IMG/VR virus record: IMGVR_UViG_3300021958_000045
Location: 1-64,000 of that record
DNA: 64,000 nt
Strand: one strand, 5' to 3'
DNA from: a virus
Lineage: Duplodnaviria; Caudoviricetes
Part shown: positions 35,001 through 49,497 of the stretch, in pieces
How the letters are laid out: each line of letters begins with the position of its first letter
Position numbering within the stretch: position 1 is the first letter of the stretch
Program-made: the position numbers and the translations under genes
Notes under the pieces: model-generated
The model's input: only the letters and a program-made list of their open reading frames with translations
What the model was told of the DNA's origin: nothing
Database searches by the model: none

Positions 35001-38000
35001 AACGAGCTATTAGAGCTTGATTCTTTTTCTCCGTAACTAATATAGCTATTATTAATAGTAGACTCAATTTTCTTTTCTTTTGCTTGAGAAGAGTCTTGTC
35101 TTTTAATTACAGACTGAGTATCGGCAGATTTATTGTATGAGTTAACCGATTTAGAATCACTTGCATTATCAATTTTTTGAGAAATCAAACCTTGAGACAA
35201 AGAAATAAATTCATCTTGCTTTGATAAATCTTTTTCTTGTTCTTGTACAATTTTTGATTCTACATTTTTATCTCTTGTTTGTAAGTTTATTTTTTCGCTC
35301 TGCTTGCCTAACGCATAACTTTGTTGAGTTACATTTCGATCAACTAATTTTGGTATTTTTTCTTGAGATAAGTTTTTATTAATTATAAAGTTTGGAACTA
35401 TACCAGAATAAAAATTTTGATTAGATTTATAATAATTTTCTAATTCTTCTCCTGACCTCATGTAGCCAGGAATTTTTTCATGAGCTTGCTGACCTTGAGC
35501 GGTTTGTTTTCCTTTAATTGCTGCGCCTCTTAAAGCATTTGCAGAAGGCATTGCTCGAAATCTATTCATAGTTGCTTGTTTATTGGTCGCCGCCTTTTGT
35601 TTGTCATACTTTTCGAAATCAGCCTTTTCTTTTGCAACCTGCCCAGATAGCAAACCTTGATAATCTAATTCTTTAAGTATTTTATCTGCCATGCTTGCTT
35701 TAATATCTCCAGACTGAGCATTAGCTTTAAAATCTCCTATAGAACCATGGCTAGAAGGCCAATTAAAAAACTTTCTCAACTGGTCTGTAGGACCTCTAAC
35801 ATCAAAGTCTCCTCCTCCTGCATTAACTGGAATATTACTAAAAGCAGCATTTGCTGCTGCCTCAAAAGCGTTGCCAGCCATAGCGGTCAATGTACCTTCA
35901 TTAAAATGTTTTTGTACAACTCTATCAATAATCGAAGAATCTTGCATTCTGATTTCTTGTTCGCCAAAAGCTCTAACAAAATTTTCAGAATGAGCTTTAA
36001 CTATAGTCTTAACATCTCTTTCTACAAGATCTCCAATTTTTGCTATCCTATCCGCCTCTTTTGGAATCTTGGGATTTATGCCTTTTGAATTCCAGCCGAC
36101 TAAAAATTGACTTTGGTACTTTTTTGCATAAGGGCCGCTACCTCTAACTGTAGACTGAGGAGCTCCTCCTCCTCTTTGAGGAAACAATAAAGAATAATCG
36201 TAAGTAGTAAATGGCCTCAAATCTATAACATTATCTGGGTCATCTTGATATGGTTTATTTTTTTGCCTACCCGCTTTGCCTGCTGCTGGCGCAAAATTAG
36301 GAATAATTCCATCATTAAAAATTTGCATAACCTCATGTTCGCGAGAGCTAATTTGTGATGTCTTGTTTTGATTCCATCCAATATCAGACTGAGGAACAAT
36401 AGACTGCATAGACCTACCATAAAAATCATATTCTTTTCTGCCATATTCCTTCTTATTAAATTGCATGAGGGCAGGATCATTTCTTCTTCCGCTAACATTT
36501 AAAAACAATCCTCCGACTTGCTCAGCCCATTTTTGTATTTGGCCAGAAGCCATAGCTTGTTTAAATTTTTCTACTTCAGGGTATATACCCTTCTTTGGAT
36601 TAGCTCCTCGATTTAACAACTTAAGAATTTTCTTTTTATTAAATACATTTTTCTCTGAAACCTGAGTAGAAAGTATATTATCTTTTGCGGGTTTATTTAA
36701 TCCCCCTCCAGCAAATTCTTTAGCTATTGTTTCTGAAGTACTGAATGATGTAGCCCCAGAAGGAGCGACATTGTCTAACTCTCCAATATCCCTGCGCCCA
36801 GAAAGCGGCCCACTAACATGAGACTTCACAAAATTCTGAATAATATTAATTACATCTTGAGGGGTTTGCGCTCCTTTAAAGCTTGGCATATTTTTACCAA
36901 TATTAGGTCTGTCTAGAGTTGGATTCTTTTGCCCTCTATACAAAGTTAAATTTGCATAATTTGGTACAGTTCCTGCGCTTACATTTTCCAACTGTCTAAT
37001 TTCAAATGGGTCAACGTTATAACCATAACCTCTAGAAAGATCAGGAAAATCTACTTTTAATTTTTCTTGTATATATTTATTTAACGATCTAAATTCTCTT
37101 GAATTAAAAAACTGTCTAAAATCTTCTTTTTGCGCTTCTGTCTTTGCCCTAAATAATCCATCCGCCCGAGACTCAGATTTTAGCCTTGTGTTTATTACTC
37201 CTCCCCTAGCCCCCATTGACATTAAATTAAACTCAGACAATGCCCTACTTATTTCAGCAAATTCTTCGTTTGAGTAATCTTTAATTTTTGATTTGCGCAG
37301 TGTATTTGGAGAGTACTTTCTGAAAATTGAAAAGTTTGGAACTGCACCGTATGCTAACTGAGGCGGCGAAGGTTCTGCCATTGGCGTTATTCCGCTAGCA
37401 TATGACTTAATTAAAGTTTGAAACTCTCTTGCTCTTTCTTTTCCTACTTTGGTATGAGATGGAGGTAACACCATTCCGCCGCTAGGTTTAAAAGGTAAGC
37501 TAAATGCTTTTTGTACATCTGCTCCTGTCGAATAAAACTTTTCTTTATTATTAACAACTACTCGCTCTTTCTTTCCATTAATCTCTAGTTTTTTAACTTG
37601 AGTATCTTTATATCCAACGTTTTGACCATATAACTGAGAAGCTTGACCAGCTTCTTTCATTCGGTCAGATTCAATACTAAAGTTGGGAATAAACCCAGTT
37701 GCTAAAGTTTCAGTTTCTTGCGAAGTAACATCTGAAATAGTTCCGCCTGCAAAACTCTTAGAGTCTGCAGAAGAACTGCTAGAACTGACACTTTTAGAAA
37801 CCATACCTTCTGCAAAAGTCTTGGAACTCGTAGAAGACTCGTCAACAGAAGTAAAACTATTTACATCTTCAGACCTCGAAGAATCCTTAAAGTTTTCTTT
37901 ATATAATTGAGTTTGATAATCAGAATCACGAACTCGGTCTTTTTGCCTTGTAAAATTTGGAACAATGCCATGGCTTGCTATTTTAACTGATTGAGGGTCA

Positions 38001-41000
38001 TTCTCATATTGTTTCCTGAGAGAAATTAATTCTTTTTCAGAGTAACCTTTTTTGATCAACATTTCAAGATCAGACTTTGGCCCCTTATTTTTAATATAAT
38101 TTTCTAAAAATAATTTATCATGCCAGCTTCTAGATGTAATTGTTTTACTCTTAAATCCATGTTTTGCTAGCATGTTTTGAGCGGCAGATCTCTCCCCATT
38201 AGTTGCACCTCTTTTTGCAAGCTCTCTAATTGCCTTAATGTTAACAAAGTTTGGGACTGTTTCTGGAGCAGTAACAGAGAAATTGGGTAAAACCAACTCT
38301 TCATTTGTATTGGTTCTTTTTTGTTGTTTGGCGAACATGTATTCATTAAACTCTTCTTCAAGAGAATTTAAATCTTGTGTTGATACAGTTTTTCCAGTTG
38401 GAGAAATAATTTTATCTTTTTGGACGGTGAATTTTTCCTGAAATAATCTTTGTATATCTTGATCTTCTTTTCTAATTGCCTCAGATTTAGCTTTATTAAA
38501 TTCTGTACTCTTTAATTGCTCTTGCTTCTTGAAAATTTCAGATTCAATTTGTTTAACTTTATCTGGGTTTTTGCCTGGGTTCGATGGTCGACTTAATTGG
38601 AATTTTTCTTTTTGAAGTGTTGTAATTTCTTTTTGTATTTTGTCATACTCAGTTTTATTAAATTTTTGCGCAAATTCCTTTGATTCGTATACTATGTCTC
38701 TTGAACCCTTACCTGTTGGGCCCATAAGTGGATTTGTAACCTTTGATAATTGAGATGTTAAACGATTTAAAATTTTAACGTCTTGAGGAATATTACTACC
38801 AACTCCATATGCATTACCAACAGAGAGATTTAATTTAGTTACTTTATCAGAAATGCTTTTATAATTTTTATTATGTATATTGTCTTTAATAAATTTATTA
38901 AATGCGGGCGAAGCGAAATTAGGTATATGCCCATCTGACATAATAGCTAGACCTTTCATCTCTGCAAACTCTTGATATAATTTACTTATTTGTTCTTCTG
39001 AAATTGACTCTGAACCACGAGCTTTCTTTACAAATTTTAATATATCTTCAGCACTGTCTACGTTTTTTGTAGTAAATTTTTCTGCGGATTTTGCGAGGGC
39101 TTTTTGGGTATCTGTAGAAGTAAAAATTGTTTTTGAAACATTATCAAAGCTATCAGGATTGTATAGTCTTTTTAGGTCCGCTCCAGTTTTACCCATTGGG
39201 AAGGACTGATAATCTTCTGCCTTAAGAGATTGCACGTCTTTTATATTTACCTGACTAGGAACCTCTTCCCTCTTATTCTTCCAAGAGGTTAGTCGATCAT
39301 AATTTCTATTGCCCGAAGAATTTTGGGCGACCTGAGTAGACTTAACTACGGCACCCATGATTTCAGGATAACCTTTTTGTGCAGCAAATTGGGCAAACTC
39401 TTGAAGCTTAACATCGGAATCAAAAGAAATCTTATCTTTAGTTAGTTTATTTTGAGGTTTATGCCCAGAGATGAAATGCATTTTAGGGTTCTTACCCCAC
39501 TGCTTAAACTTTGCATCAGGAAACTGCATCTTTGCAAGTTCCAAATCTTTTTCCATAACATACTCTTTACCACTCTTGGTTTGTTTAATATTAAACATTG
39601 ATGGAATTCTTGCAAAATTAGGAATTAATCCTTGAGAATAATTTTCTAACTGAGGAACTTCTCCAGAAGCTCTTCTCCTCAACATCTTACCTCTTGGCGT
39701 AAATTTATTTATTCTTTTTAAAATATCTTCCCGATGCTTCTTAAAGTATTCAATTCCTTCTTTTTTTGTTTTAAATTCTCCGCTAATTTGAGCTTCTTCT
39801 AAATGCTTTAATACAGAACCCATTTGAGGCCCTGGCTCTACTAATTTTTCTTGTATTAAATCTCGACCTTGTACAATTGGCTTAGGTGGCTCTTTGTATA
39901 TTCCGCTTTCTTTTGCAATTGAGCTCATTCTACTAATATTCTTTTCATCGACTTGAGTAAATTTTCTTGCAGTTACATCGTCAGATAAATTTTTGCCCAT
40001 GTCAGATTCAAGCAATATTTGAAACTTACTTAAGTCTCCTACATCCTTAGTTAACCTATTAATAGATTTCTGCGTCAAATTCTGAGGAAAATTTGAGTGA
40101 AACATATGTCTTTCAACAAAAGGCGTTAAGTCTTTAGATAATTTACTCGCTTCTCCTTGAGACATAATTCTACCCAAGAAACTTTTCATTGGCGCGACTC
40201 CAGCCTTTTCGTGACCGTAAGAAGTTATCGAGCCATCTTTGTTTATTTGTGTGTTTGTAACTTTGCCAAAATCATGCGTTAAAGCAGAAAACATCAATTT
40301 GCTTCTTTCTTTTTCTGGAAGCATTTGCCAATTTTTATTATTGGCCATTGCATTAGTTACAAGTTTTGTGTGATTAAATACATCTCCTTCGGGGTGATGC
40401 TTGGGAGACTGGGGAACTCCCTGCAATTTATCAATTTCAGGAAAATGCTTTATCCATCCAGACTCTTTTAGAAATTGCAAACCTTTTTCTGGATTGGTAG
40501 ATTTAGATGCCCATTTCATCCATTCTTCTCTAACTCTTTCTTTTGGAAGATCTTTAAATTGTCCAACCATTTCTCGAGAATAGTTGATCAATTCTTTATC
40601 TGCAGAAAGATTAAACCTTCCAGCCATCTGCATAGATCTTAATACCCTCAAAGGGTCTTCTTTAAATCTAGGAGACGTAGGCTTCATGATGCCGTCTTGT
40701 AAATCCTGCCTCCCTCCCAAGGGGTCAATAAATTTCTTTGTGAGAGGGTCGTAAGAAATAGAATTGATTGTTAAATCTCTTCTTTGTGCAGCTTCTTTGC
40801 GCCCCATATTAGGATCTACTTCAACCTCAAAACCTCTATGTCCAGCACCTACTTTCTTTTCTCTTCTTGGCATCGAGAACTCAAAATCTTGCCCCCCGCT
40901 TTTAGCTTTGAATACTCCAAAGTCTTTGCCAACTAAGCCTTCTTTAGTTAAAGATGGAGACAATATTTTTTGCAATTTTTCTTGTTCTAAACCAAAAACC

Positions 41001-44000
41001 TCAACATCCCAATCTTTAGGAAATTTGCCCATTAAAAAGTCTCGAGGAGCTCCGCCTACAATCTGAGCACTACCTCCAGCAGCTTGAATTTCTTTTGATA
41101 CTTTTTCAAGATATCTGGGGACGGGCATAGTTTCTGCCGCAAAGTTAGGGACAAGGTCTCTTTGTGTATTTTCTGGTTGAGCAAAGTTGGGAACCAAACC
41201 TTCAGCATTTCCACTACCTCTTCCAGAATGCTGGCCACTAAATTGATAATGAGTTCCAGTTATATTTTCATTTCTAAGGTTACGAATAGCTTCTATATTT
41301 TCAATTGCGTCATCGATCAGATCGTACTTACCCCCTTGCTTTTTCCAAATTCTCTCTAATAGAATCGCTTTCTTTTCTGCAGGCTTTAAATTCCTATAAC
41401 CAGGAACCCTTCCTCCTTTTGCTTTAATTATTTTTCCAGAACCATCGCTAGCAATTTTAATATTATTAAACATATCTGCGGTGGTCATAATCTTTTCAGG
41501 ATTAATTCCCCATTTTTTTAATTTTTCTTCAATAAATGGCACAGACTGTTTTGCTCGAGCAGTTAAGACAGTGACCGCTTGACCCTGAAGTTCTTTTGCT
41601 AACGGGGTAGGTTTAGCCAATCCTGCAGATTCAGCTTGAAACAAATCTTTAGACTTTACATTCTTAGAATAAGTGCCTAGTGTTTCGTCAAAATCATAAA
41701 ATTTTCTAAAGCCTGCGTTTCTTTTGAGGGCAAAGTTGGGAACGAGTCCTTCAGATAATTTTGATACAGTTCTCTCTAATGTGCCAGCATCTTTTGTAAA
41801 ATTAGGAACAGCTCCTTCTGAATATTTTTTTAGAGATTTGCCTGGAGCTTGTTTTTTCTGACTCTCTTGAAGCTTGACAATCTTTTGCCAAATTTGGTTT
41901 GCTTCGCCATTTAACTGGCTAATCTTTGGATCTATTTCAGCTCTGGGCCTCCCAGATTGAGACAGTTGCTTTGCTTGTCCTAGTTTGCCCTGCCACATCT
42001 TTAAAAGCCTTGATCGATCTGACTGCATATCAACAGGCTTAATAAAATTAGGCACTGCTTCTTGAGAATTTAAATAACTAGCGTAATTGGGAACAACTCC
42101 TTCTGAATATTTCTTAGCAGACTTGCTAGATATTTGTTTCTTTTGTTTCTCTTGGAGGCCGACAATCCTTTGCCAGATTTGATTTGCTTCGCCATTTAGT
42201 TGACTAATCTTGGGATCTATTTCGGCTCTAGGTTTTCCAGATTGAGACAGTTGCTTTGCTTGTTCCAGTTTACCTTGCCACATCTTTAAAAGCCTTGGTC
42301 GATCAGACTGCATGTCTACAGGTTTAATAAAATTAGGAACTACTCCCTCAGAATAAAAGCCTGCCTTTTCATCTCTATTAAAATTCTTATCCCCCTTTTT
42401 TAATATTTTTGTATATGCATCCATGGCAAAATATTCGCCAGATGCAGTTCCACTTAAAATGGAATTTTTTGTATTAAACCCTAAATTTGCTTCTGACCAA
42501 CTATTAAATGACTCTATACCATTTTCTTTAACCCATTTACTAACTTTAGTTTTTAAAGATTTAATATTTTTAAATTCGATTTCATCATTTCCAATCTGAA
42601 AAGTTCCCGAGGTTGACATTCCTGGCTTGATTCTTTGTTTTAATTGTGGGAATGCATTGATTATGGTTTCCCAAGGAGTTTTGCCTGAAGAAGCACGAAT
42701 TTGGTCAAAGGTACTGTGAATCTCTTTATTTTTCCATCTTCTTTTTCCTGTAAAGCCTGCGATTTTATCAAAATTTCTATTAGCTCCCCCCTTCATAGAA
42801 GGATCGTTTACATCTGCTCCTTTAGCTCTTTCTGAATATAAAATGTCAGTCTTGTTTTCGTAATCGTACTCTCCCTTGCCATAAGTAAATCTAGTTGTTG
42901 TTCCAGTTTTTTTATCAGTTACTTGTATAATGGGTAATTGACCATTCCATTCATTAGTAGTCTTCATACCGTCGAACCCTTTAATATCTTTTTGGGCTCT
43001 TGCAAGATTTTTCTCTCTAATTTTTTTAAGTAATTCTGGCTTGCCCCAAGTAGACACAAAATTTGGTATACTTTTAGCAGCATCTGGAATTATTCCTTGT
43101 GCAGCCCTCTTTTTACCACCAGCAGCAATAGCTTTACCTCGTCCAGCTACTGTTCCAGCGGCAGCCTTCTTTTGCTTTTCAAAATCTTTATATTGTTTTA
43201 ATTTTTGATAACCTCCCCTAGAATCAATAATTTTTTTAATTCCACTGCCAATATTTTTCTTGCTTGATGAAACTTTAGCATCTACATTTTTGCCTTTTCT
43301 TGAATCTAAATTAAATGCAGTTGTTAAGTTTTTTTGAAATTCAGGACCAGGAAAATCCCATCCAGCGGTTCCAGGATCGTTTTTTACAACTGAATTTTTA
43401 ATATAATTTAAAGTTGCTTCAAATACCCTTCCTGTGAATTGAGGGCCTGCAGACTTATCCAAGTAATCGCTTAATGGGCCAGAACCTTTAACCTTTCCTC
43501 TTGGCATAATATCTCTAGCTACATCTCCTATGGCAGAAGTCATATGCTTATCAACAATACTATGGAAGCTTGAGCCTTGTGATTGAGCCAGTCTACCGAT
43601 AGTGAAGTTTCGTGCTTCAAATTTTGTGCCTTTAAAAGCTGGAGGAACTGCGCCATCAAACACTGAAGATGCTGCTACAGTTTGATTTTTTCCTGTTTCT
43701 GATTTGCCCGCTTCTGCTGTTATAATACCCTGTCCAGCTGCATTTAATTTAATTACCTGATTGTTGGTTGCTTTAAAATTTGGTACATAACCAGTAGAGT
43801 AAAAGCTTTTGGTTCCATAGTCAGCGGCAGAATAAAATTTTTCAATACCATTGTCATAATTGAATCTTTGCATCATATCTTGATTTAATATTGCAGATGC
43901 GCCTGAACCCATAAAGTTTTCAACAATTACTTCATCTGTATTTGCAACGATATCTTGCTTTTGAGTTTTTGTTTTTTGAAAGTTTTTAATTAATACAGGG

Positions 44001-45775
44001 GAAGCAGATTTAGAAGCTCCCCCAACTCTACGATTTATGTCTCTTTGTTCTGCAGCAAAAGAAGGAATAAATTTTGAATCAGTATTTGCAGGAACATAAC
44101 CTTTTGACATGCCAAGATCTTTGCGTCCCGCTGCAGCTCTAGGACCTCGGCCATAAGGAACTACAGTGCCTTGATTACTTACTGCAACGTTGGCTAACGT
44201 AGACGACGAAGCGATTTTTTTTAAGAGCGCATCTTGCGCTATTCGTTCGGTCGTTTGTTTTTTTAAGACGCTGAGTATTGCCTGCTCTTTTGCCACTTGG
44301 CTTGTAGAGTCGCTTAGAATTTTCTGTCGAACCCCCTCTTCGCTCATTAAAATTTGAAGAATTGCAGCTTGCAAACCCTCTTGACGTTTAGTTTCACTGT
44401 TGATTGAAAAGATTGACTTCAATGCGCTCGCACCTTGTTGAGCGACGAATGCAAATAATTTAATAAATGCCCCACCAATTAAAACCATGCCAGGACCACT
44501 GATGAAACTACCAATACCTTTTAATAAAGTCTTGCCAATATTAGTGCCACTATCTTCTCCTACTAAATTATTTATTCCGTCAGCCAGAGTCTTAACTGTT
44601 TCTAATACTTTTTCAATGCCAGGACCCAAAGTCATTTCTCCAAAATTGGCAGCCAACTCTTTTATAGATAATCCTGTTTGACTAAGTAGAGCAGACATAG
44701 TTTTATTCAACTCTTCATTTCTTTGGGTGGCTTCATTAGTACTATTGTTTGCAGTTTTAAGAGCTTGATCGTATATACTAAATTCGCTATTTAAGTCTTT
44801 AATTAAAGCTTTAAGGTTATTAACCTGAAACACTCCAGCAATTAATTCATCAGTTGCGGCTTTTTGAGCATCGCTTAAAGTATCGTAACCTTTTGCATAA
44901 TCTTGAAGCACTGCCATGCCAGAACGAAATGCCCCAGTTGCATCTTGCGTTGCAACACCGATTTCTTCTAAAGCTTCTCTTACGCTAGATCTCTGCAATC
45001 TTGTAAATATACTTTTAAATGAGTTTCCTATTACTGCTCCACCTCTAGCTGTTTGCTGTTGAACACTAGTAACAGCAGCAAGAAGTTCATTAAATTGCAC
45101 TTTTGCAGATTGTGCAGTTGCTCCAGCTCTTGCTAAACCATCTGCTAAATCTTTAGAAGATACTGCAAAGGCTGCATCAACATTAGCCAATCTATTGACA
45201 ATATCTGAAGAATTTATAGCTGCATCATTAAAACCATTTATGGCTGCCGTAAGAGCATTTACAGCCTCCACAGAATCCATGCCAGACAATCTTGTTAACG
45301 TCATTGCATCAGCAATACGCTGAAGGGTTTCGTCAGCACTTAAACCTTGTCTAGCAAACTCTGTTGCGGCAGCGGCTATATCTTGAAAAGATGATGCAGT
45401 ATCTCTTGCAACATCAAATAAAGCTCCTCCAAAATTTTGTAAAGCAGACTCAGACATATTCATAATAACATTAACGTCTTTTAATGCTTTTTGAACTTCT
45501 ATGGCTGATTGAGCCATTGCTTTTAATGCATCAGAAACTCCATTAATAACGGAAACTGCAGCACCAAACGCAAATACACGAGCGACAGCAGCGTCCATGG
45601 ATTTTTCAAATTCTCCCATTTGGCCAGTAATTCTACCAAGAGGCTGGACGAGTCCTTTTTCATTCAATTGCAATTTAATGGGCTGAATTTTCTTTTCGCC
45701 CATTTTGGCTTGATTAGCAATATCTTGATCAAGACCTACTGCTTTAACTCTTACTCTAATATTTTCTTGTGCCAT
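14087..45775 (-). CDS. Giant tail tape measure protein (10,562 aa) with embedded enzyme domains
   Basis: Single uninterrupted 31.7-kb ORF located after the tail tube and chaperone-position genes. The N-terminal Ala-rich region (AATEFARQG...LTRLSGMD...LANVDAAFAVSSKDLADGLARAG...GNSFKSIF) is typical of TP901-family TMP cores. Confidence 0.9.
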   Translation of the reverse strand: MAQENIRVRVKAVGLDQDIANQAKMGEKKIQPIKLQLNEKGLVQPLGRITGQMGEFEKSMDAAVARVFAFGAAVSVINGVSDALKAMAQSAIEVQKALKDVNVIMNMSESALQNFGGALFDVARDTASSFQDIAAAATEFARQGLSADETLQRIADAMTLTRLSGMDSVEAVNALTAAINGFNDAAINSSDIVNRLANVDAAFAVSSKDLADGLARAGATAQSAKVQFNELLAAVTSVQQQTARGGAVIGNSFKSIFTRLQRSSVREALEEIGVATQDATGAFRSGMAVLQDYAKGYDTLSDAQKAATDELIAGVFQVNNLKALIKDLNSEFSIYDQALKTANNSTNEATQRNEELNKTMSALLSQTGLSIKELAANFGEMTLGPGIEKVLETVKTLADGINNLVGEDSGTNIGKTLLKGIGSFISGPGMVLIGGAFIKLFAFVAQQGASALKSIFSINSETKRQEGLQAAILQILMSEEGVRQKILSDSTSQVAKEQAILSVLKKQTTERIAQDALLKKIASSSTLANVAVSNQGTVVPYGRGPRAAAGRKDLGMSKGYVPANTDSKFIPSFAAEQRDINRRVGGASKSASPVLIKNFQKTKTQKQDIVANTDEVIVENFMGSGASAILNQDMMQRFNYDNGIEKFYSAADYGTKSFYSTGYVPNFKATNNQVIKLNAAGQGIITAEAGKSETGKNQTVAASSVFDGAVPPAFKGTKFEARNFTIGRLAQSQGSSFHSIVDKHMTSAIGDVARDIMPRGKVKGSGPLSDYLDKSAGPQFTGRVFEATLNYIKNSVVKNDPGTAGWDFPGPEFQKNLTTAFNLDSRKGKNVDAKVSSSKKNIGSGIKKIIDSRGGYQKLKQYKDFEKQKKAAAGTVAGRGKAIAAGGKKRAAQGIIPDAAKSIPNFVSTWGKPELLKKIREKNLARAQKDIKGFDGMKTTNEWNGQLPIIQVTDKKTGTTTRFTYGKGEYDYENKTDILYSERAKGADVNDPSMKGGANRNFDKIAGFTGKRRWKNKEIHSTFDQIRASSGKTPWETIINAFPQLKQRIKPGMSTSGTFQIGNDEIEFKNIKSLKTKVSKWVKENGIESFNSWSEANLGFNTKNSILSGTASGEYFAMDAYTKILKKGDKNFNRDEKAGFYSEGVVPNFIKPVDMQSDRPRLLKMWQGKLEQAKQLSQSGKPRAEIDPKISQLNGEANQIWQRIVGLQEKQKKQISSKSAKKYSEGVVPNYASYLNSQEAVPNFIKPVDMQSDRSRLLKMWQGKLGQAKQLSQSGRPRAEIDPKISQLNGEANQIWQKIVKLQESQKKQAPGKSLKKYSEGAVPNFTKDAGTLERTVSKLSEGLVPNFALKRNAGFRKFYDFDETLGTYSKNVKSKDLFQAESAGLAKPTPLAKELQGQAVTVLTARAKQSVPFIEEKLKKWGINPEKIMTTADMFNNIKIASDGSGKIIKAKGGRVPGYRNLKPAEKKAILLERIWKKQGGKYDLIDDAIENIEAIRNLRNENITGTHYQFSGQHSGRGSGNAEGLVPNFAQPENTQRDLVPNFAAETMPVPRYLEKVSKEIQAAGGSAQIVGGAPRDFLMGKFPKDWDVEVFGLEQEKLQKILSPSLTKEGLVGKDFGVFKAKSGGQDFEFSMPRREKKVGAGHRGFEVEVDPNMGRKEAAQRRDLTINSISYDPLTKKFIDPLGGRQDLQDGIMKPTSPRFKEDPLRVLRSMQMAGRFNLSADKELINYSREMVGQFKDLPKERVREEWMKWASKSTNPEKGLQFLKESGWIKHFPEIDKLQGVPQSPKHHPEGDVFNHTKLVTNAMANNKNWQMLPEKERSKLMFSALTHDFGKVTNTQINKDGSITSYGHEKAGVAPMKSFLGRIMSQGEASKLSKDLTPFVERHMFHSNFPQNLTQKSINRLTKDVGDLSKFQILLESDMGKNLSDDVTARKFTQVDEKNISRMSSIAKESGIYKEPPKPIVQGRDLIQEKLVEPGPQMGSVLKHLEEAQISGEFKTKKEGIEYFKKHREDILKRINKFTPRGKMLRRRASGEVPQLENYSQGLIPNFARIPSMFNIKQTKSGKEYVMEKDLELAKMQFPDAKFKQWGKNPKMHFISGHKPQNKLTKDKISFDSDVKLQEFAQFAAQKGYPEIMGAVVKSTQVAQNSSGNRNYDRLTSWKNKREEVPSQVNIKDVQSLKAEDYQSFPMGKTGADLKRLYNPDSFDNVSKTIFTSTDTQKALAKSAEKFTTKNVDSAEDILKFVKKARGSESISEEQISKLYQEFAEMKGLAIMSDGHIPNFASPAFNKFIKDNIHNKNYKSISDKVTKLNLSVGNAYGVGSNIPQDVKILNRLTSQLSKVTNPLMGPTGKGSRDIVYESKEFAQKFNKTEYDKIQKEITTLQKEKFQLSRPSNPGKNPDKVKQIESEIFKKQEQLKSTEFNKAKSEAIRKEDQDIQRLFQEKFTVQKDKIISPTGKTVSTQDLNSLEEEFNEYMFAKQQKRTNTNEELVLPNFSVTAPETVPNFVNIKAIRELAKRGATNGERSAAQNMLAKHGFKSKTITSRSWHDKLFLENYIKNKGPKSDLEMLIKKGYSEKELISLRKQYENDPQSVKIASHGIVPNFTRQKDRVRDSDYQTQLYKENFKDSSRSEDVNSFTSVDESSTSSKTFAEGMVSKSVSSSSSSADSKSFAGGTISDVTSQETETLATGFIPNFSIESDRMKEAGQASQLYGQNVGYKDTQVKKLEINGKKERVVVNNKEKFYSTGADVQKAFSLPFKPSGGMVLPPSHTKVGKERAREFQTLIKSYASGITPMAEPSPPQLAYGAVPNFSIFRKYSPNTLRKSKIKDYSNEEFAEISRALSEFNLMSMGARGGVINTRLKSESRADGLFRAKTEAQKEDFRQFFNSREFRSLNKYIQEKLKVDFPDLSRGYGYNVDPFEIRQLENVSAGTVPNYANLTLYRGQKNPTLDRPNIGKNMPSFKGAQTPQDVINIIQNFVKSHVSGPLSGRRDIGELDNVAPSGATSFSTSETIAKEFAGGGLNKPAKDNILSTQVSEKNVFNKKKILKLLNRGANPKKGIYPEVEKFKQAMASGQIQKWAEQVGGLFLNVSGRRNDPALMQFNKKEYGRKEYDFYGRSMQSIVPQSDIGWNQNKTSQISSREHEVMQIFNDGIIPNFAPAAGKAGRQKNKPYQDDPDNVIDLRPFTTYDYSLLFPQRGGGAPQSTVRGSGPYAKKYQSQFLVGWNSKGINPKIPKEADRIAKIGDLVERDVKTIVKAHSENFVRAFGEQEIRMQDSSIIDRVVQKHFNEGTLTAMAGNAFEAAANAAFSNIPVNAGGGDFDVRGPTDQLRKFFNWPSSHGSIGDFKANAQSGDIKASMADKILKELDYQGLLSGQVAKEKADFEKYDKQKAATNKQATMNRFRAMPSANALRGAAIKGKQTAQGQQAHEKIPGYMRSGEELENYYKSNQNFYSGIVPNFIINKNLSQEKIPKLVDRNVTQQSYALGKQSEKINLQTRDKNVESKIVQEQEKDLSKQDEFISLSQGLISQKIDNASDSKSVNSYNKSADTQSVIKRQDSSQAKEKKIESTINNSYISYGEKESSSNSSFAESIKSKQSDFINGFQSFSQGMVSKDVSTDSKSFSQGMVSKDVSTDSKSSSQGMVSKDVSTDSKSSSQGMVSKDNQQASSEVFSQGFSLESNKVSSNSTNQENRVFGREDNFSTLYRLRDNFQENESSTKENVLNRRKESIEKRKNKQVIQKYFQGYTPEKQKPSDREFKYLKNDNKEKDSKTEIIESIYSQGKEISKERLSNGYVPNFALNVNSASRGNDALGAAIKRESQAGIPMHKIRIGQSNRLKNESNPGGVGVYNTIDEPRGLGQGISRSISQGINPQKHGLVANGYVPHSTFSVPNFIGRFIPKMFKRGGSKAADAAIPTPTGGGMFGGGGGMMNTIFMGQMMFGGIEGQTGTAGGYAADAAGDALQIAAITSMITDKKKWVALAASVGALNGVLDQYSKSLKVQGDQIERNIQINGKAIESATQVVSAQSRLNSAIEGGDPENITKAIKSLQKQIESFPSGSSAIDDLRSALVTANGDVQKMSTALEKFSASALKVNQLGQLTIKAQAANENREGVLPFGFGPTQLPDFVPFFGGEKGELKDEARGEIRNIGMQSVQGLELAEEQVTSLSKKLSKINFEEFSAEDIRSTIKEFSSTLDEETRTLFDQIVDNIPDEGMVDFTVGIKEQLKLRKESIEAGKAVGKTSSALGNLKSTIVNLSTAVSRSISELNSNITKAFDIAEKQFNSELSIMTGMNYMTPNEARSAQEEFSVTRINAETAAGTEFEVSKFVNQLMKDTKMEDFEGEDGSVFSGKLADVLNKMYLKSSELEQGDGRFMADDIVSAIERIDFDERTQEEQELIDSVRQLNEKANQQIALLKLGNEIAAREDLLQARKNLESTQLDVTAREGEIMEQFAFGQSFEPETQLDLDVQARATQDMVGLMEGLFGKSPELNDMRQQANMQNAIGNVNRILMMLGVETETGFDAKADANIDMGDVVNSMKKALVEQDLPDGTQKMVSYMIKQLTAQQGALASTPSDRSELTRKTLQSTAEALNIDLEELGLDPRTMGFNDLTSIADQLGDNGVEIRLLSSIDEGIQTLSKTLQPEQGISAEEIVKAIRNIKVADTEKVEQRTKASKQQDEARQKIQNIAIDGANVNIGGSTKINTSGNITIHGGANSTEPPQPAPSRGGVPNFARNSSTRDRKKSPIRGLKESLNEDKLKESRGFEQFAGKTFTGGRALQVANYYPGAIDSIYREVEALEKKGITNALNNVQLTIPASSNSLANFQYQGAVVTNTVDEGNVTPRSYLNKIENVHDLSPRDSEFSMTGMIDNSSSQTQAISTVRRSSQNASANQIANNYSIANQKSSWKSARAQSSIGDTYNAGAALRVANYYPEAKETIQKEIKTLKDRGVKNPINEIQFTVPDQELSEIGPKSIIDSVITNRVDDGSVAESNYLTKIQNTHKTGLRIQKQKEFISPSAEQRAENLVKNEKILRNNLHQNIISKRKDSQKTKEQEVYSESVWGETTYAPKQTMAQKLAGKTFTGGAALRVAKYWPGASESISREITALENKGVMDPISNIQLTVPGGKSQYFSSYDGPVVTNKIDEGGVAPTNYINKIRGVHKLGPQEGAFASHGTLDEDVDDKTKFMRGYLERNPYVPNFAAPQKGARRIINTARALGEDMDIWDLEPESIKPSAVANWNSSGAALLKQVHGLQGNSQGGLSKLQRAFIEEMRKEENQQIFSKIGVENFDFDQAKFMDPEIGEPQIFRPMVIEYMGGNKDGQVVPVEEATKAKPRDFQSGKYIISQIDSTNPDIDELELFTGEENRAIRQAVANQDADSEETMRRQRAAKATQRAVERGGPKARSDAGPNVRATKTLGDSAPKVGTLTEAAKQNMKGLESHIIPKDLADDIRSQEAITARAAENATEQASKEIGKSAEGGFVRQAGTWLKRQLQTLRILTGRSTEQKQGINPVKEEEILSQIENEGVRTYSGDTPTNPLETNEDVKSILAEKVDGEVDTGADRVHKQKENYLQRERSVTEKIQRAIQANRIRKNRQKKQRQRQKELEQKARRTLEEQKAQQRQEEIERVRKIQEAEIDKGLGRTRTSMAIGEGSEFKDVLTYNNPELRELSSWDKIKKTALKFVGRYKGSEIEEVERQNNIVRTQQMQDLASGENIASEETTFSKLQKLSNERSVTTSTSATSESLFQRPASTPRNPWTTSVVSHRSQKSPVVEMAEELIEQRAMNISGSVSPIKDAPEESKKQSILRQVIGGSTSPEGVDGLFSLRAETIDPPLLERIRRAKSQLFPEHGNVSFRQAGIVPSKSPSTVLSDFDILASDGTLIGTMDSTGIIHPPTVETKPVIYDANGRAVGAQKVAGVQTAQAQLQLAPANTGELAVSASQADVLNQAQVSKISNKLKSGSDLSVEEMNVLQQWANNNPDLVNSIETGQENKTLLLENADVKSRASRLTDKQFEISKVTSAAKAENQIDELINNPEFVDRATRTMPGDPIHLQRMFDNIDSRKSVPLPPTETALDKVKTNSNINRRANELQKQLVLREIRQKAPLELQKRLRLPANFNEADLNKKFLSEKQRLQQLIDNPNIPSNKRGIIEEDLRILTRNKNEHLNALDPKLMERQDLFINRQFKELIADAGLSVFTGGGAEGVSKLDVTNQAMAKKLGPAAFDLDGDFVKLREEISKVLFLDPENTAGFDKNLAESLVDRELRVIGLDSQGKGFGLGDRMRENLINLDRFVGMGMGEDFLRQAKTQNLHKSDINVARLVSFMDLMDPAGNKLDGKAIENLKKGGIDKIFQKIQKGELFSQTAIRGKTVPMIPKDPEAVLNNLKNADLASQVNASRILENEGKLSSLAASKGNGIVNPASLELAAQELEAGRQPLSTSDVGEDGIDLTKTRMTAEELASLQSTMDSLDGDLDQKAPDQRLSTLSQSLDPENTIETSRNIIAEKQQQLINDRLVEKAEFDRLTSLGNAATQEDLQRMSELLQIDNLRVSQGRSSNFDRENVTRANNQLASFNQQSVRTASNEVGVKLTKREDSPVRSRRSEEAIEELDALEEAKADPVEQAAAVRETGAETEAKVREVASVDDNIVQQTIEEVEEVDDNWKKSKEEYLADPEKAATSERLLEKGKAHKRLIDYLVETKGWKNTMQAGKGIWNGVSSIVPIAGSAKDWTAEKWGTVRERISAWRAEQAKKHPEGIAKQMAEENHRAEQSRKAEAKLAMEMNIGSKPIAFDTSESLTQTFKQTEKFNRSQSGWTEYEDKVLDQLTGRMRVEQNGKDIITYDPKLSPYVGSKDIKEAHALRRSLNPKDHMMKRITAGENIKFLKAGEVMKKVNQGTTAVKGALLDKQISAPKSLTSSNVFQRRLIESETSGKHINVPEEFSKTITRKGNDYRALDLDKVAEGLRESTRVVDYQEPDGSIKTYSVDEFEKKRSEAFSNIQKRAELSSRSISETSTSELGDFKKESISEKIRMEQEKFMRGVLPGDIDGNPGRYTLTKEGSLLRAKEINRQANAVNLQRAGQAFDSAMNYGGGPLRGATVGTLLPAAGILAFQTETGMSVLDSAANMIGSEPKHFVLEKQVRNKDNVSVGTGNYLSTAGTDLIQQQKTLLNKKKQAGLLDAPEEASWHDKALTKIGLKQMAESKVEGDKNATELARKNIAAKIARRNLEGLAGGEEGIPGLSEYTMASQDNLEDARAQPMFFESREAATQYAHENNLSGYSAKGLGDNSEERAFLRSYGKGFAQGKVGEGNDLAESVGLSQFTGSEVAGVLSANLADAAIVGTRARMGTSTAAAMTKGAALKTAARRFAGVTAAEFFVARGEKARMDYSGMEGHLRAGGNYALGFGTGLAFESKNPLLGFAVGAPLGAAAYTARVGLGDYLNFDPDEINNTKYAMSSEELLERQKEIINLAKSKAESARQLLDKYYLGSFVNKGKRLGVDYSSKEAFHTFYDQAERDRYYQLAIEQGEIMRSAYRLAEQMDTRILANRDLYQAGTLQKNEKPNEKLVKHNYTADAVSKILSDTVTLFDPNLVTDLKEQTKMEKEGFTQKQILEKLNSKDFTSTKINEKGEEYVYQPNTEELVNLRQQKSRTYLKGLERVHDFNARQGLLRSSTDYAGASSLEETMEIGKMPEKEFLKEKISWDPDSNLGKIKDRRAQIFYKDGKKITDYDEWMKEMDRGSLDYGKLTYPYEMAQVLGIDTVDHRDTNRRIPMLKVQARIKEQFQNFRTTGRIEKKPAQAVDKILQGMGIASQGGDNSKETKINNFILGKQDDGWNVQYDEATKSTIMKHEKHGLVSFPGMGDVNNERSFERLYEKHMQDLTKSRYEEPMQSYYKAQKNFASGEQTPATRKAFEQSQAERVKNTRGISDADPSREYGRPGYGEENYNKSKFKTFEEFDEKIPKEQRIYLSAMSALLKRGEEAQYQSKDMQGQDVEYYEALADLQADEVMHAQFNKALIERNMGVQASKTQITEAGYSMQKGLGYGTQVDAINKDFESAEVGSANILKLGSLNPEDINGYVSRFQGGLESKREEDIKLRKRVSEREAEMSVIDKKLTSNISQKERDHLTAERGEIVKSLSETKLKRANLKPFLTAPDKVAQGMQLRKNSQTQFESTINRLSKQLGIDEEISLDRKVGSLYNHFSKNPLYTGKSNIEDSKKSAPGDVSKNVLEQKDRWMLREEAIQMMVARNRRLRLEKKKLEKASPGSQIIQQKTFNDDDEFELRRTMNIFADGRSSATKKSTSKQFQKDLDEWHSSRDTKSSYASIIRDQETYSELLKKKGLYLRTGEEDSIAGQAILEGKIGNQSYRGTYFRDLFDSVMTRGSNQGESFNGLLDQKKQAMQDWELVKGLPEMLPYTATMESAYRKGMGLDTKNDDLLGAIPYEEIQKSKQKLNNQLMTAGYSMNWWRDKDVSTRTEDWNKLLIENFRKPVKEDLLKSGGARLAGGIIDEADGTVRAQKDFANVLDEDGNIIQSADERAADALVQNIKKDFKLFDVNQDGIITPDEINLLDDRFDPAKFNPEEGIGYNESARKIAGTRRGTLTPEIFRALTTKFDGSGLGDGPDGGLSRAEIFQNDGSGNDKNKSIVQDRVRDFLKNKYVKQVSPYGESLKEGLNSYFYGGTEGGVRAVEIWKELAMLDKNSIPEASREDFSKAQSEAMKLIQNVGLHRSIISKGQKLDQRSQDRYGDLFKQKMDLQLSPEDIKNYRHLETELGSDKWKGKEHLPAYREMQETMNAYRERRDKVSFINNEFNQGSTKEGMLAGRAFSLPNFLINQGLINEGDSKAGEPWAPAAIGDDWQNYSDRYFRGISSVAQAMDSSTAEKVAKDLGINIKTGGQGGWAGEPDTIFETEKDPQDITNQITGYDEAALDRQFGAQFKEVDTARRLSEEKEFINKYSNQNAMSVMANEMGNLSSNASAKVAGITGRGGDDNTNLTNPFGKSKEIAASWRERETSIQEKHKEGLEKMVSNAKERKISRESFTDVRDPLKFIQQYSKDYNERKGFLWNKVDNAKGAYDQKVATGADAETKALALQRYKEAIQEELFHRQMAYPDSTMNDVLNRKNYLDIQNTDWKLGPAYQDWYDSYAGEKIMLKTGEGVDIPVSDKQDAAKKLLQARGDEMRAVMMQRGWMTEDGEYAKRIGDNAITPEKINELLVDTHPGNKYVYKAGEKIDRLQNIWSEKFGGKFTKGALSLFGNESAKFVLNATGAPGDLTDTSSASEQGGGFVVSRERRDAGLKAQQALQPEVVGRFNILDPNEKLMMAISKSAQNGFKGGGPEDFTSIYQGMSLSGRESFKRKYKEAIEQKVPPSIVSQLNNYISNVDKNDLYATAKGEGVPDYLKRKIDSRTPLTRGERDELREYKKREMVARRIVGEKRRSSGISRAAGQMMDRLGTSEPLARFISSAGSSAVLQYRFMNETDGNIKKLEDLDIQGQGATKINGSYIRTEKDRKRKLESLARKRIAHFNNFKKIISNHPEAKHNILFDSVNPRGFRANPEMASISENIIRRPVISELSDEEKKAALRLNIDVADKLVRTDSNGVPIIQEESRKTMSRLEGTGPFDVIAKTNKLEGLEETFDLDLVQQAAANASQDIRTMQKQADKVREQKSKISYDEAYDLNKDGRLSPEELSRKKMLEDFAKQNQAKASKAKVNNSALGFQPKKSKPFASSRTAASSPGKANLHQAYSEVKQSVLASYKKPVTADQVGIANLRTGTGRYEKRIVNAQEKIFSHGGVDFVAPPKNSSVSRKYAEDVQDEFGIDPYDKKIQNAAQGFVPNRGQSSRAEKNPIPGINKLNVNIDSLSKTLSKTKFDSPDVDLAEAWTKSDTGKQDGRQWEELSQSLRSMYTKNYEDNKMSKAWSQSSTGKKDGRDWMSLGDEEKQMYKQKFDDFQTKKLSSSESSRQSQISQASYMPDQSSDSKSNIALTGAVQGLTKGVADVKVGLSKASEVEVKASEIDEVGQPKMIQDTITSSDVSTLMEKVTSHFLNQQGQRFETGENDKSTGEVLNDSIEPVISAIEKIKESIKQQMIDKDKQATLEKEKESVQRGDERKQLASNDVLAKAWAESNTGKQDGREWNDLKQGERDMYSENYKENKMSEAWKKSFTGQQDGRNWSELGDNEKKMYSERYESNQKPVQSLENKELTEKLAKPAPLNKSEHDVIAAQQKAQLDQQKQTRGAELDLENFFNQGSPQAVISADAGESTRANPLAQAETDNPEMESLLNNLVTAFDAFITQLADVKFDTPAEPIIKETEVPDQIDVKPDLNADKQMFEENAKAKGHEISDLYSQSTNPFDVQSNVETAELNTVTPEAPPIENPGLINEVFNPPTPEVDSQSAGLNMQLPEGIEEALKIKMPDEMPNLTMDYSPLINAVDKLQEVISNASSMQLLPPEQESLTLMVPEGLQESLTLSMPDATETTVSVDASALNEAVASLQEAIASASGLTQTIETKIDTSGTLNINADTAGLRNAVEPALNQMQQQIMQSTQTFISSKIAQAMNEILKMLPTSS
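15230..16162 (-). repeat. Two pairs of ~32-aa AWxxSxTGxxDGRxWxxL...MY repeats near the TMP C-terminus
   Basis: Pairs at about 15955-16162 and 15230-15441, seen directly in the translation. Confidence 0.9.
16727..16762 (-). other. EF-hand-like Ca-binding loop within the TMP
   Basis: DLNKDGRLSPEE fits the 12-residue EF-hand consensus. Confidence 0.55.
20090..20125 (-). other. EF-hand-like Ca-binding loop within the TMP
   Basis: DVNQDGIITPDE fits the 12-residue EF-hand consensus and is preceded by FKLF. Confidence 0.55.
30285..31480 (-). repeat. Three dispersed copies of an ~85-aa module within the TMP
   Basis: ALxVAxYxPxAxxxIxxExxxLxxxG...TxP...VxTNxxD[ED]GxV...YxxKIxxxH at about 31200-31480, 30765-31020 and 30285-30550. 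Confidence 0.9.
34781..34953 (-). repeat. 48-nt tandem repeat, about 3.6 copies, encoding S[FS]SQGMVSKDVSTDSK
   Basis: Unit cttagagaccatgccttgagaggaacttttggaatcggtagacacatc starts at 34781, 34829, 34877 and 34925. Confidence 0.95.
35600..36290 (-). other. PD-(D/E)xK-like nuclease domain 2 within the TMP
   Basis: GNAFE (35861-35875), DFD (35801-35809) and DFK (35726-35734); same pattern as domain 1. Confidence 0.5.
36315..36950 (-). other. Mono-ADP-ribosyltransferase domain (R-S-E clade) within the TMP
   Basis: LYRG (36932-36943), TSFSTS (36734-36751) and EHE (ExE, 36332-36340), in the canonical order. Confidence 0.8.
39720..41128 (-). other. cca: Class II CCA-adding tRNA nucleotidyltransferase with HD phosphatase domain, within the TMP
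   Basis: VGGAPRD..DWDVE, VGKDFGVF, GAGHRGF loop, EAAQRRDLTIN, DPLGG, EDPLRVLR, ERVREE, followed by HD motifs HHPEGDVFNH...THDFGK...GHE. Same motif order as E. coli Cca. Confidence 0.93.
41240..41725 (-). other. HAD-superfamily phosphatase domain within the TMP
   Basis: All four HAD motifs in order: DFDETL (DxDxT, 41681-41695), VLTAR, a Lys motif (AEKKAIL), and LIDDAIEN (41308-41320). Confidence 0.85.
41826..42340 (-). repeat. In-frame direct duplication of an ~75-aa helical module (period 285 nt)
   Basis: PNFIKPVDMQSDR.RLLKMWQGKL.QAKQLSQSG.PRAEIDPKISQLNGEANQIWQ occurs twice; matching DNA anchors at 42329 and 42044. Confidence 0.95.
43200..43770 (-). other. PD-(D/E)xK-like nuclease domain 1 within the TMP
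   Basis: GRVFE (43418-43432), WDF (43352-43360) and VDAK (43274-43282) match the E...D...[DE]xK order of the restriction-endonuclease fold. Flanked by PNF motifs. Confidence 0.5.
44700..45600 (-). other. Core tape-measure (PhageMin_Tail/TP901-like) domain within the TMP
   Basis: Characteristic TMP core residues as above; boundaries approximate. Confidence 0.8.
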
Positions 45776-48630: not shown

Positions 48631-49482
48631 TCAATAAGAAAGACCATTTAATATTTTTTCTAAATGATTTATATTTGTAATATAAGATTTATAAGAAAAC
48701 GTTGCTTCAAGAAATTCATGTATCGAACCGCTTTGACTATAGTCCATAAGTTTTGCATCTTTCATAAAAAAACTTCGAATAGCATCCCCACTTTCACAAT
48801 CTTGAAAAATTAAAGATAAATCTTGTATTTCTGGCGCGCAAATAAAATCAAATAAATTTTTAGACTCATAATCGTCTACATGAAGAACGAATTGACAATC
48901 CACCTGTATTGGAAATTCAGTTCTAAAATCTATAGGCTCTAATGATCCTAATTTAAAAATAGGTTCTCTATCAACGTTAATTTGAAAATTAAAAGATTGA
49001 ATTCTATTTGTTGAGTGACCAGCAACATTCAACAATATACTTCTTGGAGAAGCAATCATAATAGATGAATCTCTTTCTGGGGTTTGGCTTAAAAATATAT
49101 CTGTATCTCCTCCAGAATTACCATAACATAATAAAGAAAAATTTAAACTAGGAATACCTCCTATAGCACATTCGCAGCTATAATTTGTAATTTGTGCTCG
49201 AGAAAAAATAAAATTTTTTCCATTTGTATATAGATTTTCTCCATAGATATCTGTACTTTTAAATAATTCAACCAATGGATCTGTCGAAGAAACCATGAAT
49301 CTCTCTATATCACAAGTAGCAGTCATTGGTTGTTCTACCACGCCTCCCAAAAAACCTCCATCTCTGCCTACTGCATTTACATAAGTTTCTTCTGCGGACC
49401 ATGCCACTTGGCAGCTTTGAACCCCTCTTATTCTTTCTTTATTTATATATAAATCTTGAGTATCATGCTTATGCCCTCTCAT
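48631..49482 (-). CDS. Tail-tube-like paralog
   Basis: IQSFNFQINVDREPIFKLGS aligns with the tube segment IQSFTLDVPMSRTPLNRIGS. The track's GTG start at 49497 is part of the upstream GTGTA motif, so the ATG at 49482 is preferred. Confidence 0.55.
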   Translation of the reverse strand: MRGHKHDTQDLYINKERIRGVQSCQVAWSAEETYVNAVGRDGGFLGGVVEQPMTATCDIERFMVSSTDPLVELFKSTDIYGENLYTNGKNFIFSRAQITNYSCECAIGGIPSLNFSLLCYGNSGGDTDIFLSQTPERDSSIMIASPRSILLNVAGHSTNRIQSFNFQINVDREPIFKLGSLEPIDFRTEFPIQVDCQFVLHVDDYESKNLFDFICAPEIQDLSLIFQDCESGDAIRSFFMKDAKLMDYSQSGSIHEFLEATFSYKSYITNINHLEKILNGLSY

Positions 49483-49492
49483 AAACAATATA

Positions 49493-49497
49493 TACAC
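49493..49497 (-). promoter_or_regulatory. GTGTA motif upstream of the 49482 gene
   Basis: 10 nt before the ATG, immediately after the tube terminator. Confidence 0.55.

Follow-up and report, generated by a model that had tools for sequence, protein, structure and literature searches.

We found that the giant tape measure protein encoded by a tailed phage (Duplodnaviria; Caudoviricetes) holds two neighboring enzyme cassettes, a HAD-like phosphatase and, directly after it, a CCA-adding enzyme with an HD phosphohydrolase domain (CCA/HD), both of which, judging from their folds and motifs, are probably active. The DNA that we analyzed, hereafter the window, comprises 64,000 nucleotides (positions 1 to 64,000 of IMG/VR record IMGVR_UViG_3300021958_000045) and stems from an 80-kb viral contig that is ~57% complete by estimate. 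We tentatively prefer the explanation that the two cassettes are modular cargo for the repair of RNA ends, able to act one after the other in this phage and not obligately paired.

The tape measure N-terminus, the HAD cassette, and the CCA/HD cassette all lie in one open reading frame (ORF), which is the domain arrangement of a polyvalent protein. The same open frame was kept in a relative of 94 to 95% identity, and the giant ORF was colinear over the full length with P0067, a relative of 7,181 amino acids (aa). As the gene order has the terminase (59506-61371) and tail-tube-like genes (48631-49497) upstream of the giant gene and large tail-tip ORFs downstream of it, the giant gene occupies the slot expected for a tape measure gene. 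A motif scan detected 24 copies of [VILAT]-P-N-[FY] in the protein, mostly with a preceding G-x, and two of these, V1528-F1531 and V1542-F1545 (14 residues apart), separate the HAD cassette from the CCA/HD cassette that directly follows it, just as a first-pass annotation of this DNA had described. The spans given there (41240-41725 for the HAD and 39720-41725 for the whole) fall within the two cassettes as we delimit them (Table 1). G-x-[VI]-P-N-[FY] is a general trait of this tape measure family, with ~4 copies in ordinary members of ~2,000 aa and up to 19 to 24 in cassette-rich members; P0002 carries a P-N-L variant. No DNA match for the region was found among GenBank phages.

The CCA/HD cassette has the motifs of a class II CCA-adding enzyme

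Database searches upheld the proposed CCA/HD identity. The head domain matched PF01743 (E 8e-20), the best PHROG was phrog_2244, "tRNA nucleotidyltransferase" (E 5e-68), and the best NCBIfam model was PRK10885, an E. coli-type "multifunctional CCA addition/repair protein" (E 1e-52), with a score of 179 bits that lies under the equivalog cut-off of 451. Among PDB entries, the cassette matched 3wfo, the HD-bearing CC-adding enzyme of A. aeolicus (E 2e-22), with residues 138-473 aligned including the HD region, as well as the CCA-adding enzymes 6ibp (E 8e-20) and 7otr, and the RNA-binding neck was recognized by PF12627 at E 1e-4 (22.1 bits against a cut-off of 22). Class II CCA-adding enzymes are defined by a set of motifs that includes A, B (RRD), D (EDxxR), and E. 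Motifs A to E are all in place in the cassette and are kept across an alignment of 10 homologues; in a local alignment with nine fused homologues, GGxxRD...DxD, RRDxTxN, EDxLRxLR, and ERxxxE were retained, and the HD residues H-PEGD...H, HD-[FL]GK, and GH-[ED] were likewise kept, both in tape-measure-embedded and in other fused copies. We read the cassette as a full-length class II CCA-adding enzyme with an HD phosphohydrolase domain, predicted to be active. A poly(A) polymerase identity is less likely, given that CCA models scored E 1e-52 versus 4e-28 for PcnB models and that an HD domain is present.

The HAD cassette belongs to an orphan family with a predicted Pnkp-like fold

As far as sequence can tell, the HAD cassette defines a small orphan HAD family, comprising 13 clusters among 1.84 billion representatives and confined to tape measure proteins. 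These 13 relatives were all that a full HMMER scan returned, nearly all of them within proteins of 900 to 3,800 aa; the proteins that hold them belong to the same tape measure family, in which the domain is again flanked by P-N-F motifs. No homologue came up in a word-indexed search of proteins close to it in length, and the sole sequence model that the cassette reached was phrog_1238 (E 2e-5), over a stretch spanning the region of motifs I and II. Across 10 homologues of 33 to 94% identity, the invariant columns coincided exactly with the four HAD motifs: motif I with D1361-F-D1363-E-T, motif II with T1405, motif III with K1468/K1469, and motif IV with D1488-D1489 (in cassette numbering D14/D16 within Y-D-F-D-E-T, T58/R60 within L-T-A-R, K121/K122, and D141/D142). 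The fragment P0058, whose C-terminal ~12 residues resemble what we take to be translated sequencing adapter, was excluded from the final alignment.

The predicted structure pointed to a specific branch of the HAD fold. The AlphaFold2 model built from the homologue alignment had a predicted local distance difference test (pLDDT) score of 85.7 and a predicted template modeling (pTM) score of 0.81, with pLDDT values below 50 for the last nine residues (173-181), which belong to the linker and are predicted to be disordered. Upon comparing the model with the PDB using Foldseek, the T4 Pnkp 3'-phosphatase 5uj0 ranked first (E 1.9e-4), and 4xru (Pnkp1) and 1ltq were among the top four. VIA-align against 48,161 representative chains placed Pnkp1 4xrp first [Z 12.1, root mean square deviation (rmsd) 3.1 Å, 133 residues], with 5uj0 and 1ltq at Z 12.0 each and the leading Pnkp-type entries at Z 12.0-12.2, rmsd 2.9-3.1 Å, and 128-133 residues, followed by a second tier of plant VSP (9.8), AphA (8.8), class C acid phosphatases (~8.5), and generic HADs (~8). 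A re-alignment of the top 1000 Foldseek chains agreed with this ranking, and nearly all listed PDB and viral fold matches were HAD-fold proteins. Many of the top matches among viral predicted structures were annotated as polynucleotide kinase/phosphatase (PNKP). The HAD identity, for which Pfam, NCBIfam, and PDB sequence searches offered no support, was supported by the invariant motifs of the 10 homologues and by a confident HAD-fold model, and the suggested likeness to T4 Pnkp gained structural support (Z 12.0-12.2 versus at most 9.8 for other HADs).

We also aligned the HAD profile to the phosphatase domain of T4 PseT (from AF158101) using hhalign and, of the hhalign profile results, made use of the motif register against T4 alone. 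In this low-confidence register, D1361/D1363, T1405-x-R1407, K1468, and D1488/D1489 stand opposite T4 D165/D167, S211-x-R213, K258, and D277/D278. R1407, two residues past motif II in the sequence T-A-R, is invariant across the 10 homologues and aligns with Arg213, which is essential in T4 Pnkp. In the same low-confidence alignment, the column opposite T4 Arg176 is basic for the most part (K/R in 7 of 10 sequences), and no acidic residue was aligned at the position of T4 Asp254. Alignments of the HAD profile to P0045 and P0051 were not significant. In sum, the model and motifs indicate that the cassette is a genuine HAD phosphatase that is predicted to be most like Pnkp-type 3'-phosphatases, without being placeable in the Pnkp family by sequence.

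A different enzymatic role has to be weighed at this point, namely that the two cassettes are independent effectors, with the HAD acting as a mononucleotide phosphatase (in the manner of the T5 pre-early 5'-deoxynucleotidase or the class B/C acid phosphatases) that reshapes nucleotide pools or clears host DNA breakdown products early, with the CCA enzyme serving separately, and with their adjacency being an accident of cassette shuffling. The second-tier folds (AphA, VSP, and class C acid phosphatases at Z 8.5-9.8) fit such a role, as does the context of motif I, D-x-D-E-T-L-x-x-Y, which resembles what we take to be the class B/C acid phosphatase signature. Furthermore, the ESM Atlas neighbors of the HAD, all viral and to be regarded as leads only, comprised, among others, clusters of the "Swiss Army Knife RNA repair" HAD family, of the T5 5'-deoxynucleotidase, and of acid phosphatase B, with no difference in score between them. 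By contrast, every Pnkp-type entry ranked above all nucleotidases in two aligners, by at least 2 Z units for the best chains, and among viral models a T5-type deoxynucleoside monophosphatase came 47th, versus ranks 5 and 9 for PNKP-annotated entries. We consider it close to an even call, and not quite that, that the substrates of the HAD are 3'-phosphate ends of nucleic acids and not free nucleotides. That the cassettes are independent effectors strikes us as doubtful overall.

HAD and CCA cassettes are seldom adjacent among relatives

The tape measure family spans more than 513 IMG/VR loci, of which we inspected the best 80. Nearly all of these carry ~4 P-N-F motifs, and the HAD and CCA cassettes occurred together solely in a 94%-identical relative, with a partial HAD in L081. 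After combining three protein searches into one co-occurrence tally, we found the HAD-then-CCA adjacency to be limited to the window lineage (the window and L002/L016) and the distant lineage of P0062 (38% HAD and 54% CCA identity); a check for co-occurrence in other tape measure proteins, suggested by the first-pass annotation, thus showed the cassettes to be mostly apart. In the window, the cassettes sit in a variable block (38260-42532; aa ~1082-2506) that consists of two 82-aa helical repeats, the HAD, the CCA, and two further cassettes (aa 2056-2283, for which Pfam gave no match, the ESM Atlas no usable one, and searches no diverse homologues, and aa 2289-2495), and L016 has the same series at this position. 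P0062 is rearranged, and the cassette behind its CCA corresponds to one that lies upstream in the window protein.

The HAD of P0062 falls into a different clade (support 100/99) from the window HAD, and both clades include members that lack a CCA. The recurring adjacency in two HAD clades counts against a mere accident of shuffling and would reflect either an old block with many losses of the CCA or two independent juxtapositions; we regard it as suggestive and not as strong evidence. For the cassettes being independent effectors, on the other hand, speak their largely independent distribution and their varying neighbors, as a HAD-ART arrangement was found in P0053, an ART-like cassette (R/S-x-S/E-x-E) directly ahead of the CCA in P0002, and an "RE"-repeat domain ahead of the CCA in P0003. 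The window protein has an ART-like cassette of its own at 36311-36952. When the HAD profile was run against 50 other long CCA fusion proteins, no copy was found, indicating that this HAD family is not a general partner of CCA enzymes.

A tentative role in RNA 3'-end repair

We propose that the HAD and CCA cassettes are catalytically competent cargo enzymes within a modular, "polyvalent" tape measure protein, flanked by disordered G-x-[VI]-P-N-F linkers at which they may be released. The HAD would be a small capless phosphomonoesterase, similar to T4 Pnkp and Pnkp1, that strips 3'-phosphates from nucleic acid ends, and both cassettes would most likely serve the repair of RNA 3' ends, chiefly those of tRNA. 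The HAD, the HD domain, or both would remove a blocking 3'-phosphate or 2',3'-cyclic phosphate, whereupon the nucleotidyltransferase could rebuild the CCA end, so that translation might be kept running when nucleases of the host or of rival elements harm tRNA acceptor ends. As the modules would be independent and interchangeable, a HAD travelling without a CCA cassette could use the CCA enzyme of the host, while in this phage the two could act in sequence without being an obligate two-part machine.

Several observations weigh against this proposal. On the level of sequence, no HAD model of Pfam matched the HAD cassette (best DUF2608, E 0.11), the NCBIfam, PDB phmmer, and PDB profile searches gave nothing significant, and hhalign of the HAD profile against the T4 Pnkp phosphatase domain reached a nonsignificant E of 0.084. 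The fold likeness leaves the substrate unfixed, as nucleotidases (class B/C acid phosphatases and T5 deoxynucleoside monophosphatase) are the next neighbors, and T4 Pnkp itself also hydrolyzes 3'-mononucleotides. No kinase or RNA ligase families were detected by Pfam or PHROGs where searched in the giant protein. Among relatives, more than 15 tape measure proteins contain the HAD without the CCA (P0052-55, 57, 61, 63, 64, 67, 71, and 73-80), and the CCA without the HAD is present in P0065, P0066, and P0070, all of them complete or nearly complete tape measure proteins, and probably also in the fragments P0002 and P0003. The colinear relative L015 passes from ~1081 to ~2507 of the window protein, with the variable block absent, and P0067, colinear to the C-terminus, has the HAD (70% identity) and then continues directly at ~2507 with no CCA. 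Lastly, folded 55-kDa domains are hard to fit in the lumen of a tail tube, which renders carriage in the virion uncertain.

The separate distribution, together with this colinear series, indicates that the cassettes are gained or lost separately and that the HAD functions without the CCA. The HAD and CCA are not an obligate pair, and cooperation between them is plausible. The idea of a heal-and-rebuild pair in the first-pass annotation thus held insofar as both enzymes are predicted to be intact and their adjacency recurs in P0062; it did not hold as regards a conserved pair, and its further parts, namely virion delivery into the cytoplasm, tRNA as the substrate of the HAD, removal of 3'-pyrophosphate, and a counter-defense function, are putative. 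In E. coli Cca, the HD domain acts as a phosphatase and a 2',3'-cyclic phosphodiesterase, and with end healing already credited to HD domains in CCA enzymes of this kind, the logic of the pair does not require the HAD. We deem actual cooperation of the two on tRNA 3' ends in this phage rather unlikely, if conceivable. A complete Pnkp/Rnl-type pathway was rejected, as the giant protein contains neither a Walker A kinase nor an RNA ligase (no Walker A motif occurs anywhere in its 10,562 residues) and as the 29 other scanned ORFs include no RNA-repair gene.

Given that the cassettes are dispensable in close relatives and that the HAD is missed by all sequence models other than phrog_1238, one could also imagine degenerate, noncatalytic passengers that merely lengthen or bulk the tape measure protein. 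All catalytic residues of both enzymes are, however, kept in homologues down to 33 to 38% identity, which indicates selection on activity and makes noncatalytic passengers highly improbable.

Carriage in the virion and delivery

Whether the HAD and CCA cassettes travel in the virion and enter the cell by ejection appears to us evenly balanced. By a rough estimate of volume, 10,562 residues per chain would require hundreds of nanometers of tail lumen, and from this it is uncertain how much of the giant protein stays in the particle. A late polyprotein would sidestep this problem: the cassettes would be released by processing and would work in the producing cell or be discarded before assembly, with the CCA enzyme maintaining the tRNA pool or maturing phage tRNAs. 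The gene does lie in the late structural module, downstream of the terminase and between tail tube/chaperone-like and tail tip genes, several copies of a chain of this size would by estimate demand an extremely long tail if all of it were in the lumen, and stand-alone phage tRNA nucleotidyltransferases (phrog_2244) are common. Yet the cassette arrays are kept as single ORFs in many relatives, and enzymes within a protein that leaves the particle before the DNA would parallel the MuF/portal polyvalent proteins (PMC5512222), with P0007 joining a CCA domain to MuF. Moreover, no tRNA gene was found in the window or on the whole 80-kb contig, which, with the contig being incomplete, speaks weakly against a maturase of phage tRNAs. 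We judge processing for use in the producing cell to be unlikely and return to modular repair cargo as the preferred reading. If the cargo is ejected with the tail contents, tape measure proteins would constitute a second large delivery route for cytoplasmic counter-defense enzymes.

In its most far-reaching form, this proposal would have the tape measure protein deliver a tRNA 3'-end repair kit at DNA entry, pre-empting immunity that cuts, blocks, or lengthens tRNA acceptor tails, be it cleavage by Cas12a3, 3'-pyrophosphorylation of the CapRel type, or acceptor-stem tRNases; we hold this to be improbable. Cas12a3 cleaves tRNA CCA tails as a defense against phages, and the viral counter-measure was described as "yet unknown" (PMC12851939). 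The products of RuvC cleavage should bear a 3'-OH, which would make the HAD unnecessary against Cas12a3. If true, the HAD and CCA kit would be that very counter-measure, and tRNA acceptor-end repair would be a testable viral reply to the newly found defenses that target tRNA tails.

Relation to known repair systems and polyvalent proteins

The HAD cassette shares with T4 Pnkp (PseT) and with Pnkp1 of the Pnkp1/Rnl/Hen1 complex a small capless HAD fold (best match Z 12) and DxDxT, [ST]-x-R, K, and DD motifs in register, and with the T4 enzyme a phage origin. Unlike these proteins, it has no fused 5'-kinase and no partner RNA ligase, its sequence likeness stays below significance, it lies inside a tape measure protein, flanked by P-N-F linkers, and it bears an extra variable beta insert (model residues ~92-115); an equivalent of T4 Asp254 was not seen in the low-confidence alignment. 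Similarly, the CCA cassette resembles E. coli-type Cca and A. aeolicus 3wfo in its head, neck, body, and HD domain and in all class II motifs, whereas it scores below equivalog cut-offs and forms an internal part of a structural protein of 10,562 aa instead of being a free enzyme.

Polyvalent proteins, in which enzymes are fused to MuF or portal domains, have been suggested to reach the cell interior together with the DNA (Iyer et al. 2017, PMC5512222). The giant protein likewise combines several unrelated enzymatic domains with a virion component in one chain, and it differs from them in its tape measure carrier, in its specific P-N-F linkers, and in lacking a zincin-like processing peptidase or any other peptidase family detectable by Pfam. 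CCA-adding enzymes, HAD phosphatases, and tape measure proteins go unmentioned in that paper, and we found no description in the searchable literature of a tape measure protein that incorporates a CCA enzyme and a Pnkp-like phosphatase. A survey of jumbo phages reported the same repertoire as stand-alone genes, that is, CCA-adding enzymes (tRNA nucleotidyltransferases) and polynucleotide kinase-type and "Swiss Army Knife" HAD 3'-phosphatases, proposed to mend RNA that RNases of the host have damaged (PMC7824862); those genes are separate and expressed early or in the middle of infection, while the HAD and CCA here form part of a late structural protein. RNA repair by phages (T4 Pnkp/Rnl versus PrrC) and injected multi-enzyme "polyvalent" proteins were thus each already known, and what is new are the tape measure carrier, the sequence-orphan HAD family, and the specific linker motif. 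With cassettes gained and lost independently between P-N-F linkers, these proteins may offer a natural combinatorial library in which to study the evolution of modular effectors.

Other long viral or metagenomic CCA fusions combine the domain with an RNA ligase and ART-PolyVal (P0006), with MuF (P0007), with 2H/Acb1 (P0049), with an upstream NT5C-type HAD (P0051), or, in further cases, with cytidylyltransferase-like domains. Joining CCA enzymes to end-processing domains and virion "polyvalent" markers, as in P0006, P0007, P0049, and P0051, is therefore a recurring theme, which suggests a wider, undescribed class of RNA-repair or counter-defense fusions. P0072 and P0081 are also among the long CCA-type nucleotidyltransferase fusions, and the partners across this set include an AAA_33 kinase-like domain.

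Feature coordinates and neighboring genes

Table 1. Features of the giant tape measure gene and its HAD and CCA/HD cassettes, in window positions.
Feature	Position	Strand	Basis
Giant tape measure protein ORF, bearer of the cassette array	14087..45775	-	Single stop-free ORF, 10,562 aa
Tape measure N-terminal core, aa 20-560	44096..45718	-	PF10145 E 2.8e-28; phrog_4211 E 6e-54
V-P-N-F linker ahead of the HAD cassette, aa 1345-1348	41732..41743	-	Motif scan
HAD-like phosphatase cassette, aa 1349-1527	~41192..41731	-	Invariant motifs, AlphaFold2 model, fold matches
HAD folded core, ~aa 1356-1509 (predicted)	41249-41710	-	AlphaFold2 model
HAD catalytic residues D1361, D1363, T1405, R1407, K1468, D1488, D1489 (predicted)	Within HAD cassette	-	Homologue alignment
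Double linker: V-P-N-F aa 1528-1531, 10 residues, V-P-N-F aa 1542-1545	41138..41194	-	Motif scan
CCA-adding enzyme/HD cassette, aa 1546-2050 (A1546-L2050)	39626..41140	-	phrog_2244, NCBIfam PRK10885, PDB matches
Nucleotidyltransferase head domain, aa 1572-1697, motif A GGxxRD...DxD	40685..41062	-	PF01743 E 8e-20
HD phosphohydrolase region, aa 1790-1895, HPEGD...H, HD-FGK, GH-E	40091..40408	-	Weak PF01966 E 0.006, HDIG E 0.001; 3wfo alignment
C-terminal tRNA nucleotidyltransferase domain 2, aa 1965-2009	39749..39883	-	PF13735 E 9e-8
I-P-N-F linker behind the CCA cassette, aa 2051-2054	39614..39625	-	Motif scan

Some further features of the giant protein and its surroundings were recorded. EF-hand motifs (PF13202, E 2.8e-9) occur in two stretches near the C-terminus of the giant protein, within its last 2,062 aa (14090-20275, minus strand). 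On the contig beyond the window, we found a sialyltransferase-like glycosyltransferase (PF00777, E 3e-10; contig 66306-67166, minus strand; L094 2306-3166), a GP88 family protein (E 2e-46; contig 73411-74139, minus strand; L094 9411-10139), and an Ogg-like HhH glycosylase domain (E 6e-9; contig 79104-79982, minus strand; L094 15104-15982). Two genes on the opposite strand adjoin the tail module, a 2OG-Fe(II) oxygenase (1547-2194, plus strand) and a cyclophilin-type peptidyl-prolyl isomerase (PF00160, E 1.7e-35; 699-1550, plus strand), and the presence of a phage prolyl isomerase next to a protein so rich in V-P-N-F linkers is possibly worth attention.

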